From the NCBI GenBank assembly GCA_051656485.1, contig JBOGBZ010000042.1, positions 12,568-76,567 on the forward strand: a stretch of 64,000 nucleotides of DNA, read 5' to 3'. The notes below the pieces were generated by a model. That model made no database searches, had not been told where the DNA came from, and saw nothing but the letters and a program-made list of their open reading frames with translations. Made by a program: the position numbers and the translations under genes. This DNA is from Cellulosilyticaceae bacterium (lineage in GTDB: Bacteria > Bacillota > Clostridia > Lachnospirales > Cellulosilyticaceae). Shown here one piece after another: positions 35,221-40,166 of this stretch (position 1 is the stretch's first letter; the number at the start of each line of letters is the position of its first letter).

Positions 35221-36738
35221 CTAGTCTTGTGTAATCCCTTCTATCCTGCATAATGATACTACATAGTTCTTACCATTTGTATTTCTCGTCCATAAGACGT
35301 CTGAGCATATTGCAATAAGCTGTGCTATATACCCTAAATTGTAATAGCTCCTCATGGCAATATAGTTACCATAGGTCAGCAAATCTACACCTACTTGCCT
35401 ATTGCAACAACACATGAGGTCAGGTCCTGTGCCTCCAGCCCCTGTTCCACAATAGTCAAAAAGCCCAGGTGACGTTACAGATCCAGCAGTCGTGGTATTA
35501 ATGGGTGCTTGTTGAGTAATTGCTGGTGTAGAAAATCCAATATAGGTAATGTCACATATGCTAAAGTATTGGAATGATGTACCATTTCTTAGTGTCACCG
35601 TTCCAGGCGTTACATCTGATATAGACCAGCCTCCTCCACCTAATTCATAATACGTAGTTGCAATGTCCACATTGGTGGCATTGGCATCTCTTAGTATTGT
35701 TAATGCTCTATAGAGTCCTTGTTGACAGCAGCAAACTGTCAAGTCTGATGGTGGTGTGACCCCTACCAAGCCTGTTGGTCCTGTTGGCCCTGAGACACCT
35801 TTTAGTCCTGTTGGTCCTGTCACACCTGTTGGGCCTTGTGCGCCCTGTGGGCCTTGCACGCCTGATACACCTGTTGGCCCTGTAATACCTGTTGGTCCTG
35901 TCACACCTTGAGGACCTTGTGGCCCCGTCCAACCTATTGGGCCTTGTGGACCTATTGGTCCCGTCCAGCCTGTATCTCCCGTCCAGCCTGTTGGTCCTGT
36001 TGGCCCTGTTGGCCCTAATGGACCTGTTGCTCCCGTCCAGCCTGTTGGCCCTGTCGGACCTGTTGGCCCCGTTGGCCCTTCTGGTCCCCTAAGTCCTGTT
36101 GCACCTGTTGGCCCTGTTGGCCCTGTAGCCCCCGTATCTCCTATTGGCCCTGTTGGCCCTTGCACACCTTGGGCACCTGTTGGTCCTGTTGGTCCTGTTA
36201 ATCCTGTTGGTCCTGTTGGTCCTGTTGGTCCTGTTGGTCCTGTTGGTCCTGTGTCTCCTACTATACCCTGAAGTCCTGTAGCGCCTATTGCTCCTATTGC
36301 CCCTCTTGGACCTGTATCACCTGTATCACCTGTGGCACCTTGTGGTCCTATATCTCCTGTTACACCTTGTATTCCTTGTGGCCCCCTAGGTCCTGTTGGT
36401 CCCTGCTCTCCTTGTGGTCCTGTTGGACCCGTAGGTCCTTCTGGTCCTTGTGGTCCTCTCGGACCTATTGGGCCTGTAGGTCCTTCTGGCCCTGTATAGC
36501 CACTATCGCCCGTAGGCCCTTGTGGACCTCTGTCGCCTACTACACCCGTTGTTCCGGTAGGCCCTGTATAACCTGTATAACCTGTATAACCTATAGGACC
36601 TGTATCTCCTTCCATCCCTCTAGGCCCTGTAGGCCCCTGAACACCTGGCAAACCGGTAGCACCTGTATCACCTGTAGGCCCTACACAGCATCCTGTATCC
36701 AGATTCCTATTACTTAATTGATTGTTTATTTCTGCCAT
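35221..36738 (-). CDS. Collagen-like (BclA-like) triple-helix repeat protein 1 with Cys-rich 179-aa C-terminal domain
   Basis: 505 aa. 19-aa N-terminus ending in CC, ~102 uninterrupted G-X-Y triplets (mostly GPT/GxT), then a CTD starting ..VCCCQQG. Confidence 0.85.
35761..36681. repeat. G-X-Y (9-bp periodic) collagen-like coding repeat
   Basis: Runs of CCTGTTGGT and variants (the reverse complement encodes GPT/GxT). Hand count ~307 codons. Confidence 0.85.
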
Positions 36739-36784
36739 AATAAGGTTCCCCTCCTCACTTAATCTTTAACTCTCGTCTATCCTC

Positions 36785-38335
36785 TTACAGAATAGCATCT
36801 AGCCCACAAAGTGACCCCACTCCAAAAATACTAGCTGTCTCCCTTACCCAGTACGTATCTGAACAAATTGCCATATAAGCTTGAATACCTATATTTCCTA
36901 TTGCCTCTGACCCCAAGTAGAGACGGCTGGTGTAGGTAAGCAGTTTCTGCCCAGTCTCTTCTTTGCACCCACACTCATACCCTGGACCTTTCGGATTAGC
37001 CGTTGGCTGCAAACCACAATAATCTAAGTTACCAAACGTCGTAGGTGGTGTATCTCCTTGTGTAAGAATAGGATTTTGTGGACTTAATACTGGAGCCGAA
37101 AATCTTACATACACAATATCACATAGGTTAACACTAAAAGTAGCTGATCCATTGGTAATTTTGACTGTATCTCCATTAACACTAGCAATGGTATACGCTC
37201 CTCCTCCAAAAGAATTTCTCCTACTAAAAATGGTTATACCTGTAGCAGCTCTACTTAGTAATTGAGAGAATGCTATATACATACCTAGTTGACAGCAACA
37301 TACGATAGAGCCTGCTGGACCTTGTGCCCCTTGTGCCCCTTCAAATCCTGTTGGCCCTCTCCAACCCGTTGGTCCTGTACCTCCTGATATACCTGTTGGG
37401 CCTGTTGGTCCCGCTGGTCCCTGTGCACCAGTCCATCCTTCAATCCCCTGTGGTCCTTGTACCCCTGTGGGTCCTATATCGCCGGTCCAACCTGTTGCAC
37501 CGGTTGGTCCTGTTGGTCCCGTCCAGCCTGTTGGGCCTGTTGGTCCCGTCCAGCCTGTTGGGCCTGTTGGTCCCGTCCAACCCAAGTCACCTGTCCAACC
37601 CGTCCAACCCAATGGACCTGTTGGCCCTTCTGGACCTGTTGGTCCCGATGGACCTCTAGGCCCTGCTGGACCTACTGATCCTGTATCTCCTGTATCTCCT
37701 GTTGGGCCTGTTTGGCCTATTGGACCTTGAGGACCTTGCACACCTCTTGGACCTATTGCCCCTTGGAACCCTGTAATCCCTACGCTACCTTGTATCCCTG
37801 TATCTCCTGTTGGTCCTTTGGCCCCTTGTGGACCTGTTGGACCTTGAGCTCCTCTTGGACCTGTTGGACCTGTAACTCCCTTAGGTCCTAATGGTCCTGT
37901 ATCACCCATTGGCCCTTCTGGCCCCTGTATACCGGTTCCACCTGTTGGCCCTTGAGGTCCATCTAGGCCTGTTGGACCTGTTGGGCCTTGGGGACCTGTT
38001 GGTCCTGTTATGCCTCTCGCTCCCTGTGGTCCTGTATCTCCTATCGCCCCTGTGGGCCCTGTATCTCCCGTCTCACCCTGTGGGCCCGTTGGACCTTTAG
38101 GACCTTGTGGACCTGTAATACCTGTAATACCTGTTGGACCTGTTGGACCTGTTGAACCTGTGACTCCTTTAGGGCCTGTTGGCCCTATGAGACCTCTTGG
38201 ACCTATGTCACCTGTCGCACCTGTTGGACCCATACACTGACTGGTACAACACGTCACTTGACTGTTATCTACTGTTGGTGTCATATTTTGAACTTGTGTT
38301 CCTTGACATTGATTACAAGAACAATTGTTATTCAT
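36785..38335 (-). CDS. Collagen-like (BclA-like) protein 2 with homologous Cys-rich C-terminal domain
   Basis: 516 aa. 35-aa Cys-rich N-terminus (..VTCCTSQCM), ~102 G-X-Y triplets, 174-aa CTD ([17 protein letters not shown]). Confidence 0.85.
37310..38230. repeat. G-X-Y collagen-like coding repeat
   Basis: ~307 codons of uninterrupted triplets, including a cluster of GWT triplets. Confidence 0.85.
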
Positions 38336-38654
38336 ACCCTACTACTCCTCCTTTACACCATGACTAAAATCTTCTTACTGCTTTGTACCTTCCCAGCTCA
38401 TTTCATACTTACATGTTGACCTCTCATACCACACCTACATATGACTTTTATTTGTTCTCCTGTTGTGTGTAGAAGAATAGGTTATTTTCTTCTTCACTAT
38501 CAATTTATGCAACTTCTTGTAAAATGTTATTGAAATTTTTTCTCCATTAAGCATCTATTTCCTCTTTGTTAGTGTGCTCGATTTATACATGTCTCTATTG
38601 AAAAGGATATAGAGGTTCATTCCCTATATCCTTTTATTTTGTTCTCTTACCTCT

Positions 38655-40166
38655 TTAAATAATAGCAGACACCTTACACATCGATGCTATAAATCTATAG
38701 CCACCCCATTCCCACCAGATGGTATCTGAACAGATCGCATACCAACTCGTTATAGCATGTGCGGCCCTTACCCAGTTTGCAAAATACAAGGTAGCAGGCA
38801 CAGGATTTTCACTTAACTTTGTTCCCCACTGTTCATTACAACAGCATAATGGTGCAGGGCCTCCACCACTTACGAAGCCACAGTAATCAATATTACCTGC
38901 TGTAGTAGGGGCAGTGGTTTGTGTTAGAATAGGCGTCTGTCGTGTCCAGACTGTCCCTCCTGAAGTATATAACCACTGAAAATCACATAATGGAATGGTA
39001 TAGGTGGTTGTGCCATTTGAGAGATACATCAACGTATCTGTAACTCCTACGATTTCATAAGCTGCACTTCCAAATGCATTATCAAAAGTATACACAACTG
39101 CATATGGTGCCAGTGGTGAATTAACCAATTTGCTAAGTGCAATAGATAATCCCTTGATACAGCAGTCTCCTCCTGGGCCTGTGGGACCTTGGGGACCTGT
39201 TGGACCTGTAATACCTTCATCGCCTCTTAAACCTGTGTATCCTGTATAGCCTGTTGGTCCCGGCGCACCTGTAATGCCTGTAATACCTTGTATGCCTGTT
39301 GGCCCCGTCCAACCACGTGCTCCTGTTGGACCTGTTGGGCCTGTTGGACCACCATCACCTGTTGGACCTGTTGGACCTTGTAGTCCTTGTGGTCCAGTCT
39401 CACCGGTTGGCCCCAGTGGACCTGTTGGACCTGTTTGACCTTGTGGTCCCGTCCAGCCTGTATCACCTGTATCTCCCGTCCAGCCTGTTGGACCTGTTGG
39501 GCCTGTAAATCCTGTCACACCCCTTGGTCCTCTTGGTCCCGTCCAACCTGTATCACCTTGTGGGCCTATGTCTCCTGTATCGCCTGTTGGGCCTTGTGGT
39601 CCCGTCCAGCCTGTTGGTCCTGTTGGGCCTTGTGGACCTGTATCGCCTTGTGGACCTTGTGCTCCTTGTGGTCCTGTATCGCCCGTATTGCCTATTGGGC
39701 CTGTGTCCCCTGTTGGCCCTGTTGGGCCACTCATACCTTGTGGACCAGTGGCACCCGTATCTCCTATTGGGCCTGTTGGCCCTGTTGGGCCTGTTGGGCC
39801 TGTTGCCCCTATTGGGCCTACTGGGCCTGTATCTCCAATAGGTCCTTGTGGCCCTATTGGACCTGTTGATCCAGTGATGCCTTGAAGTCCTCTTGGACCT
39901 GTCTGGCCTGTTGGACCTTGTGGTCCTGTCATCCCTGTATCTCCAGTTAAACCGGTTGGGCCTGTTAGCCCTGTTGCTCCTGTCCAGCCAATTGGGCCTC
40001 TAGGACCTGTTGGCCCTTGTGGTCCTGTTTCTCCTAATTGTCCGATAGGTCCCATATCGCCTGTGTCTCCTGGTGTTCCTGCTGAACCTGTTGGCCCTGG
40101 ACAATACGGTGTACCACAACAGCCTACACCTTCATTACTACTCCAATTATTCTCATTGCTGTTCAT
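38655..40166 (-). CDS. Collagen-like (BclA-like) protein 3 with homologous Cys-rich C-terminal domain
   Basis: 503 aa. N-terminus ..[11 protein letters not shown], ~103 G-X-Y triplets, 170-aa CTD ([20 protein letters not shown]). Confidence 0.85.
39168..40097. repeat. G-X-Y collagen-like coding repeat
   Basis: ~310 codons of triplets. Confidence 0.85.

Follow-up and report, generated by a model that had tools for sequence, protein, structure and literature searches.

Length-matched tandem collagen-like genes in a Cellulosilyticaceae spore-envelope island: a candidate bacterial heterotrimeric collagen with a rare head domain

Introduction

Do three neighbouring genes for collagen-like proteins encode three partners of one filament, or three separate filaments of equal height? 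The question is raised by genes A, B and C, which lie in tandem between positions 35221 and 40166 of a 64,000-nucleotide stretch of DNA (the window) from a Cellulosilyticaceae bacterium (assembly GCA_051656485.1, contig JBOGBZ010000042.1, positions 12,568 to 76,567). A preliminary description of this DNA noted near-identical helix lengths with cysteine clusters at both helix ends, and put the three proteins forward as a candidate heterotrimer.

We propose an in-register arrangement of the A, B and C chains, in which each filament is most likely a single A:B:C heterotrimer, a reading to which sequence comparison leads us to give a probability of about one half. Identical helix length in otherwise diverged paralogues, together with Cys-to-Cys spans that agree within 2 residues, points to such an in-register constraint. 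The support that we count towards the heterotrimer, at the same even odds, is a copy number of three, exact lengths, compensating linkers, co-regulation and axial zoning of the helices.

Results

Helix length and divergence

Script counts of the longest uninterrupted Gly-X-Y run give 309 residues, or 103 triplets, in both A (residues 20-328) and B (residues 36-344). In C the run is 312 residues, or 104 triplets (residues 24-335), of which the last is GDC, so that C has 103 triplets and a further one that contains cysteine. All three proteins are collagen-like in the plain sense of carrying a long, uninterrupted (Gly-X-Y)n, and Pfam Collagen (PF01391) matches each of them at E-values of 1e-45 to 1e-48, with no other Pfam family matching. 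The near-equality of length put forward in the preliminary description thus holds on exact counting, which found the lengths not unequal, but its hand counts of ~307, ~307 and ~310 residues were 2 residues short. Proline occupies ~50% of X positions, and Y positions are 51-60% threonine and ~16% glutamine.

Residue by residue, the helices no longer resemble one another. X/Y identity between them is 0.30-0.33 at offset 0 and 0.26-0.39 at other triplet offsets (-15 to +15); positional homology between the helices is erased and their divergence is saturated. The three genes share no long identical DNA tracts, and so give no sign of gene conversion. Stalks elsewhere in the family defined by the C-terminal head vary in length, with no triplets in P0003, 10 in P0005, 14 in P0007 and 10+5 in P0008. 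The four tandem collagen-like genes of a further locus, L085, have 125, 134, 59 and 25 triplets, the last of these (g4) being the one with a head of the A/B/C type. Given saturated helix divergence, heads only 33-39% identical and variable stalks elsewhere, the equal length of the A, B and C helices is best read as selected, not inherited.

Equal length could also be a frozen accident: the three paralogues would be redundant, or expressed in alternation, with repeats that have not slipped since duplication and no constraint from assembly. The DNA repeats of the helices are indeed imperfect, with 9-nt units only 60-80% similar, which lowers slippage. We regard this explanation as very improbable, because three lineages kept 103 triplets while X and Y residues were randomized and heads fell to ~35% identity, the helices of family members elsewhere have anywhere from 0 to 25 triplets, and both promoter blocks and all three open reading frames (ORFs) are intact.

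Cysteine clusters at the helix ends

Cysteines flank all three helices. Before the first triplet, A has TGCCV and B has VTCCTSQCM, each followed by GPT, and C likewise has a Cys cluster followed by GPT. At the far end, the last triplet of A is GVT, with CCC beyond a 7-residue spacer; that of B is GSI, followed by V and CCC (VCCCQLG); and in C a CC pair straddles the last triplet (GPGGDC followed by CIKG). The CC-containing clusters just before the first triplet and the CC or CCC motifs at or just after the last are therefore present in all three proteins as originally quoted. The distance between the N-terminal CC pair and the first Cys on the C-terminal side is 318, 316 and 318 residues in A, B and C, respectively, as the linkers offset each other: A has a short N-linker and a long C-linker, and B and C the reverse. 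This agreement, anecdotal at n=3, points the same way as the triplet count.

The comparison with the Cys knot of collagen III survives in part. Cysteines do stand at both helix ends, but neither cluster is specific evidence for such a knot, as the C-terminal motif is a feature of the head module and the N-terminal cluster is portable. The post-helix CCC opens the first module of the head, and C[CG]C recurs ~105 residues on, where it opens the second; because of this recurrence the post-helix CCC is not a dedicated helix-end knot. Its placement also varies, from in or at the last triplet in C to 1 residue beyond it in B and 7 residues beyond it in A. Where it stands, it could nonetheless link chains at the end of the helix.

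The N-terminal cluster is kept across the head family, as CCC-E-GPT in P0005 and CC-WSH-C-PIFIP-GPQ in P0007, and P0003 has a Cys-rich N-terminal region although it contains no collagen at all. At L085, the N-terminus …CKPNYPLDPCCCP[VP]PCCKP-GPP occurs both on g3, which has a BclA_C head, and on g4. Since the same N-terminus stands before two different heads, the cluster is, judged by these contexts, a portable module. It could serve as an inter-chain staple, as an anchor to Cys-rich proteins of a basal layer, or as both.

Two observations concern L085 itself. Its four genes (positions 4605-10558 of a 510-kb contig in JGI 3300037502) were fragmented by database gene calls, and g4 has AGG where g3 has ATG, so that g4 may be a pseudogene or have an odd start.

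A rare head family built from a duplicated module

The C-terminal heads of A, B and C are 177, 172 and 168 residues long. They are homologous and share all core motifs and 41 invariant columns. This confirms the common C-terminal domain of ~170-180 residues with DYCG, C[CG]C and AICSD..W that had been described, at 168-177 residues and 33-39% identity. A scan with the family profile found exactly three copies in the window.

The head has few relatives. It is unmatched in Pfam and NCBIfam even at E<=1, and a sequence search of the PDB returned nothing meaningful; NCBIfam matches to Scl and Lcl were set aside as collagen-repeat matches far below cut-off. HMMER with a three-head profile gave seven matches among 1.84 billion representative proteins. 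Five of these are real (P0001, P0002, P0003, P0005 and P0007) and two were rejected as repeat artefacts. A word-indexed search with the three heads found no relatives, and one with 8 sequences found only P0003, P0007 and P0008, the last of which was added to the family. No head relatives emerged when 185,579 species genomes, JGI metagenomes and IMG/VR were scanned with sequence patterns. As judged by these searches, the family is extremely rare in current data, with about six relatives among the 1.84 billion representative proteins.

Internally, the head is a repeat. Aligned with hhalign, its N-terminal and C-terminal halves are homologous at 90.5% probability (E 1.3e-6, 64 columns), which makes the head a duplicated module consisting of C[CG]C, a helix, a small barrel and S[IL]C. 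The A, B and C heads show each of the features by which we define the family, namely the internal duplication, C[CG]C at module starts, S[IL]C near module ends, and AIC..W. Columns C67, C115, C117, C150 and W155 are invariant across 8-9 family members.

Predicted fold of the head

An AlphaFold2 model of the gene A head, built from a 9-sequence alignment, has a predicted local distance difference test score (pLDDT) of 73.6 and a predicted template-modelling score of 0.76. Residues 11-80, a helix and 5-6 strands, are confident (block means 89-96), and the C-terminal helix and 5 strands are of moderate confidence; the second module modelled alone has a pLDDT of 70.6. DSSP assigns a helix and 5-6 strands to each half of the models.

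In Foldseek searches against the PDB, the first module of the full model resembled Hfq and designed SH3-type barrels (E 0.07-0.3, template-modelling (TM) scores of 0.7-0.8 on targets), and the second module a designed SH3 barrel, the MscS beta-domain and Hfq (E 0.03-0.3). For an Sm/Hfq-like fold the Foldseek probability is about 1 and TM scores on targets are 0.6-0.8, with weak E-values of 0.03-0.3 and a shallow alignment. Each module is thus predicted to be a CCC motif, a helix and a small Sm/SH3-like beta-barrel, arranged as a tandem pair. The likeness to Sm/Hfq and SH3-like barrels lies in the predicted N-terminal helix and 5-stranded bent sheet; the weak E-values and lack of sequence similarity set the head apart from them, and nothing leads us to expect RNA binding. 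The top 50 Foldseek matches of the head models include no TNF, C1q or BclA structure. The earlier impression that the domain is unlike that of BclA or C1q therefore stands, as it has no match to BclA_C or any other Pfam family and a predicted fold with no TNF/C1q match.

Rings are typical of small beta-barrels such as Hfq hexamers and the MscS beta-domain. With two Sm-like barrels per chain, a trimer would bring together six, as in the Hfq ring, which by analogy suggests a pseudo-hexameric trimerization knob.

Against BFVD, the gene A head matched proteins of Klosneuvirus KNV1 (A0A1V0SLK1, E 2.8e-6) and Tupanvirus (A0A6N1NSV9, E 1.3e-5), and the next match reached only E 1e-2. Both are collagen-repeat proteins, and the whole head aligned in each case (185-208 columns, TM 0.54-0.58 on the query) at 17-18% identity and a root-mean-square deviation of 6.6-9.3 Å, with a predicted model compared with a predicted model. 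For the two-module head as a whole, these collagen-like proteins, from Mimiviridae-related giant viruses, rank as the best structural matches; exhaustive HMMER search with the head profile did not detect them. The models hint at a head fold common to spore collagens and giant-virus fibril collagens, which we treat as a lead, not as demonstrated homology.

Two similarly regulated transcription units

Upstream of gene C, a regular-expression scan found a sigma-K-like match, AC-N16-CATAcatTA, at 40259-40233, 67 nt before the ATG. This match, with sigma-K-like -10 and -35 elements, lies in a 42-nt putative promoter block that is 79% identical to a block upstream of gene B (Table 1), and both blocks are intact. 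RNA folding predicts a terminator after gene C (dG -16.5 kcal/mol, z -3.96, with 0 of 200 shuffles as stable) and another after gene A (dG -21.7 kcal/mol, z -6.36). The 46-nt spacer between B and A shows no significant structure or terminator (RNA fold z -0.98) and has a GGAGG ribosome-binding site. On these sequence signals, B and A form a bicistronic unit, and C and B-A are two similarly regulated units.

Strict sigma-K-like matches (AC-N15-18-CATANNNTA) occur on the minus strand of the window at 62023, 46849, 42517, 40259, 32810, 28137 and 23839. Such sites would fit late expression, in the mother cell, of the entire island in which the trio lies. The A, B and C N-termini, as read from their translations, are polar and have no signal peptide, which fits mother-cell assembly. 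We also observed that the sigma-K-like sites sit intergenically, just 5' of many minus-strand genes of the island.

Which chains assemble with which

Smoothed charge profiles compared in register correlate between A and B (r 0.49, a value reached by 0 of 88 circular shifts) and between B and C (r 0.36, p about 0.01), with no correlation between A and C. Additionally, we scored charge pairs over 27 chain registers, counting axial and lateral Y-to-X contacts in our own implementation. ABC-type registers ranked first and AAA and BBB last, with CCC joint 19th.

A second axial feature common to the helices is the GWT triplet, which places Trp at a collagen X position and is unusual (A, 35926-36042; B, 37358-37609; C, 39306-39611). 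These triplets occupy positions 72-84 in A and 70-97 in B; four of the six in C fall within 55-88 and the others are at 13 and 89. In A and B, the stretch that bears these triplets has almost no charged residues. It lies roughly two-thirds along the rod's length and may be a band for binding or stacking.

Chains of equal length might also mix freely, so that any combination (AAB, ABC or CCC, for example) trimerizes and the spore gains a combinatorially varied surface. The motifs and invariant columns common to the heads would permit this, as would the equal lengths and the similar charge-pair scores of many mixed registers, and collagen-like proteins of Pasteuria have been suggested to vary combinatorially (PMC7743900). 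At 33-39% head identity, however, divergence of the interface is likelier than promiscuity that has been kept, and we consider free mixing improbable.

A more serious challenge is that the genes encode three homotrimers, A3, B3 and C3, of equal height. Their heads could meet in a lateral canopy, or their rods could be fixed-length struts between Cys-rich layers, such as a basal and an outer one, with the three heads offering different surfaces or ligand specificities. Several results weigh against the heterotrimer, and some of them favour this arrangement directly. Bacterial collagen-like proteins that have been characterized are homotrimers (PMC8968730), C. difficile BclA1-3 have been modelled as homotrimers only, and AlphaFold 3 modelling disfavours BclA heterotrimers in that species (PMC13188886). 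Relatives with an A/B/C-type head are single-copy, from which we presume that the ancestral head probably homotrimerizes. Gene C has its own terminator and putative promoter; as a separate transcription unit, it leaves equal A:B:C stoichiometry not imposed by a single operon. The charge-pair advantage of ABC is not significant, as 37% of triplet-order shuffles equal it, and positional correlation between the helices is absent at the level of triplets. The coarse axial zoning is equally expected for homotrimers side by side, and cross-linkable Cys clusters at both ends would suit a strut or a canopy. Finally, residues 81-140 of the head model are of low confidence, with only 9 sequences in the alignment.

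Other features are harder to reconcile with homotrimers. Matching of height should allow a drift of a few triplets, at 0.86 nm each, and these lengths are identical to the triplet despite saturation. Collagen-like spore genes elsewhere lack such a length constraint, and separate homotrimers would leave the compensating linkers (318/316/318) unexplained; a copy number of exactly three also counts against them. We consider homotrimers a possibility that falls clearly short of even odds, and retain the in-register A:B:C heterotrimer as our preferred reading.

A spore-envelope and glycosylation island

The trio lies in a chromosomal region (window GC 34-52%) in which ~15 kb to 64 kb of the window form a spore-envelope and glycosylation island. 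Among the housekeeping proteins, the serine dehydratase alpha chain has its nearest matches in a Bacillota MAG and a Cellulosilyticaceae MAG, at 73% identity each, and in Ca. Epulonipiscium, at 69%. Its genes include SpoVB, GT1 and GT2-TPR glycosyltransferases, an FkbM methyltransferase, rhamnosyltransferases and many SPOCS/DUF11 proteins, as well as seven small proteins with 5-11% Cys. From the island, its putative sigma-K-like promoters and the adjacent glycosyltransferases, we infer that A, B and C probably form glycosylated trimeric filaments on the spore surface. A phage or giant-virus origin of the locus was rejected because its neighbours are sporulation, glycosylation and housekeeping genes.

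One of these enzymes, a GT2-TPR protein encoded ~1 kb from gene A, may be the glycosyltransferase that acts on the Thr-rich (GPT) helices. At L086, the gene directly 5' of that for P0005 (positions 1-1035) has a translation that looks by eye like GT2-TPR. If so, the head family recurs beside such an enzyme.

Each of four paralogous cassettes encodes two small proteins, one SPOCS (s1) and one SPOCS-like (s2), and a protein (L) with two DUF11 domains and SPOCS. Their paralogy is position-specific (s1 with s1, s2 with s2, L with L), at 24-86% identity. Cys-rich SPOCS proteins CsxA and CsxC form trimeric, disulfide-stabilized Clostridial exosporium lattices decorated by collagen-like BclA (bioRxiv 10.64898/2026.09.03.749163), and an anchor protein with DUF11 and CsxA-like parts is predicted to heterotrimerize with two copies of CsxA (PMC12357932). 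By analogy, the cassettes may encode heterotrimeric tripods of an exosporium lattice, in parallel to the collagen trio.

A segmental duplication relates 26546-30513, with a Cys-rich gene pair and cassette c1, to 40811-44871, with CP1, CP2 and cassette c3. The duplicates are 73-86% identical as proteins, and the collagen trio adjoins the second copy only. CP1 and CP2 contain 10-11% Cys and have no Pfam match, and a PDB sequence search with the C-terminal domain of CP1 gave spurious matches only. Two large DUF11 proteins, of 1782 and 1405 residues, may act as appendages or anchors of the spore. We dropped a link to F-ENA appendages, as no DUF4183/F-ENA pilus gene is present among the window ORFs scanned.

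Table 1. Positions in the window of the collagen-like genes, their domains and signals, and neighbouring features
Feature	Position	Strand	Details
Gene A	35221-36738	minus	505 aa, intact ORF
Gene A N-terminus	36682-36738	minus	residues 1-19; contains GCC
Gene A helix	35755-36681	minus	103 triplets
Gene A head domain	35224-35754	minus	7-residue spacer between helix and head
Gene B	36785-38335	minus	516 aa, intact ORF
Gene B Cys-rich N-terminus	38231-38335	minus	residues 1-35; 6 Cys
Gene B helix	37304-38230	minus	103 triplets
Gene B head domain	36788-37303	minus	
Gene C	38655-40166	minus	503 aa, intact ORF
Gene C Cys-rich N-terminus	40098-40166	minus	residues 1-23
Gene C helix	39162-40097	minus	104 triplets
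Gene C head domain	38658-39161	minus	matches head-family profile
Putative promoter block 5' of gene C	40222-40263	minus	
Putative promoter block 5' of gene B	38490-38531	minus	ACATTTTAcaagaagtTGCATAAATT at 38527-38502
Predicted terminator after gene C	38601-38635	minus	14-bp stem, A-tract/U-tract
Predicted terminator after gene A, closing the B-A unit	35171-35218	minus	hairpin and U-run
GT2 glycosyltransferase with TPR repeats	33083-34171	plus	Pfam Glycos_transf_2 and TPR; ~1 kb from A
Three-gene cassette	28286-30513	plus	
Three-gene cassette	30568-32769	minus	
Three-gene cassette	42687-44871	plus	
Three-gene cassette	46849-49040	minus	
Possible further three-gene cassette	54601-60321	plus	
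CP1	40811-41662	minus	(CPPTPCPPRP)n Pro/Cys stalk, then ~135-aa C-terminal domain
CP2	41843-42463	minus	N-terminal domain, then CPQP/CPPP tail
Large DUF11 protein	49207-54555	minus	1782 aa; many DUF11, DUF7507, DUF7619 and CARDB Ig-like repeats
Large DUF11 protein	56104-60321	plus	1405 aa; same repeat types and SdrD_B, DUF6923, GEVED

Discussion

We have described three collagen-like genes whose products combine a rare head family with strict length matching, and which together are a testable candidate for a natural prokaryotic heterotrimeric collagen. Spore location, glycosylation, disulfides, head trimerization and the heterotrimer itself are all matters that we infer, and they can be joined in a single picture of assembly. 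A, B and C would be collagen-like glycoproteins made by the mother cell late in sporulation, and would belong to the outermost layer of the spore in a Cellulosilyticaceae-like (Lachnospirales) spore former. Each chain would consist of a short Cys-rich N-terminus, a 103-triplet helix and a C-terminal head of two tandem modules, and 309 residues at about 0.286 nm would make a rod of ~88 nm. The neighbouring GT2-TPR and rhamnosyl transferases probably O-glycosylate threonines of the helix. The head probably nucleates trimerization, after which the helix would zip from C to N. On lysis of the mother cell, cysteines at both ends and in the head would oxidize and lock the chains together, and the same oxidation would tie them to a Cys-rich basal lattice of the SPOCS type.

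This picture has a more ambitious form, which we regard as doubtful. In it, A, B and C would be an obligate 1:1:1 heterotrimer, the first natural one in a prokaryote, whose three pairs of barrels close into a disulfide-locked pseudo-hexameric ring. The N-terminal cysteines would act as a staple, the filament would dock on the SPOCS tripods, and the head would have the fold of giant-virus fibril collagens.

Among known systems, the closest in function is BclA of the B. cereus group, C. difficile (BclA1-3) and C. sporogenes. A, B and C resemble it in having a short N-terminal domain, a stalk rich in GXT/GPT and a globular C-terminal head, in lacking a signal peptide, and in the position of their genes among spore-envelope and glycosyltransferase genes; the ~88-nm rod is comparable to known naps. 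They differ in that their heads are not the BclA_C (PF18573)/C1q-TNF jelly roll, in that Cys clusters flank the helix, and in the lack, by eye, of a BclA-like N-terminal targeting motif. They are also of equal length, whereas the lengths of BclA paralogues are unrelated and these proteins are taken to be homotrimeric. By analogy, A, B and C would functionally be a BclA-like spore-surface collagen filament, with a head that is not that of BclA.

In C1q A/B/C and collagens III and IX, chain selection and registration are expected of the C-terminal head, and cysteines lie at the helix boundary. The likeness to C1q raised in the preliminary description holds for the clustering of three paralogues, their equal collagen length and their helix-boundary cysteines. 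It does not extend to the head, which has a different fold: A, B and C have no gC1q or NC1 domain, and their C-terminal CCC is repeated inside the head. Additionally, the window encodes no hydroxyproline machinery.

A different parallel is found in Pasteuria ramosa, which has ordered triplets of Pasteuria collagen-like (PCL) genes, an arrangement called unique to that species (PMC13233619). The C-terminal domains within a PCL triplet are diverged, and the function of the arrangement is unexplained (PMC13233619, PMC10329263). Like these, A, B and C are three tandem collagen-like genes in the same orientation, in an endospore former, with diverged C-terminal domains. The likeness is one of gene arrangement. 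A PCL triplet has one gene from each of three head groups, and the A, B and C heads are diverged members of a single family. Pasteuria belongs to the Bacilli and our genes to Lachnospirales-like Clostridia.

Bacterial collagen-like proteins are treated as homotrimers across microbiology and biomaterials (PMC8968730), and chain selection and register control in heterotrimeric collagens are still hard problems. If the A:B:C heterotrimer is real, a non-animal head of ~170 residues with Cys staples at both ends of the helix would be a new model of chain selection, and would be of practical use in producing recombinant heterotrimeric collagens of defined composition. If A, B and C are instead homotrimers, the locus still defines a very rare new trimerization or head domain, with a predicted fold link to giant-virus collagens, and would point to unusually strict length control of spore-surface filaments. 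The trio also adds a second, independent case relevant to the collagen-gene triplets of Pasteuria, which are unexplained.

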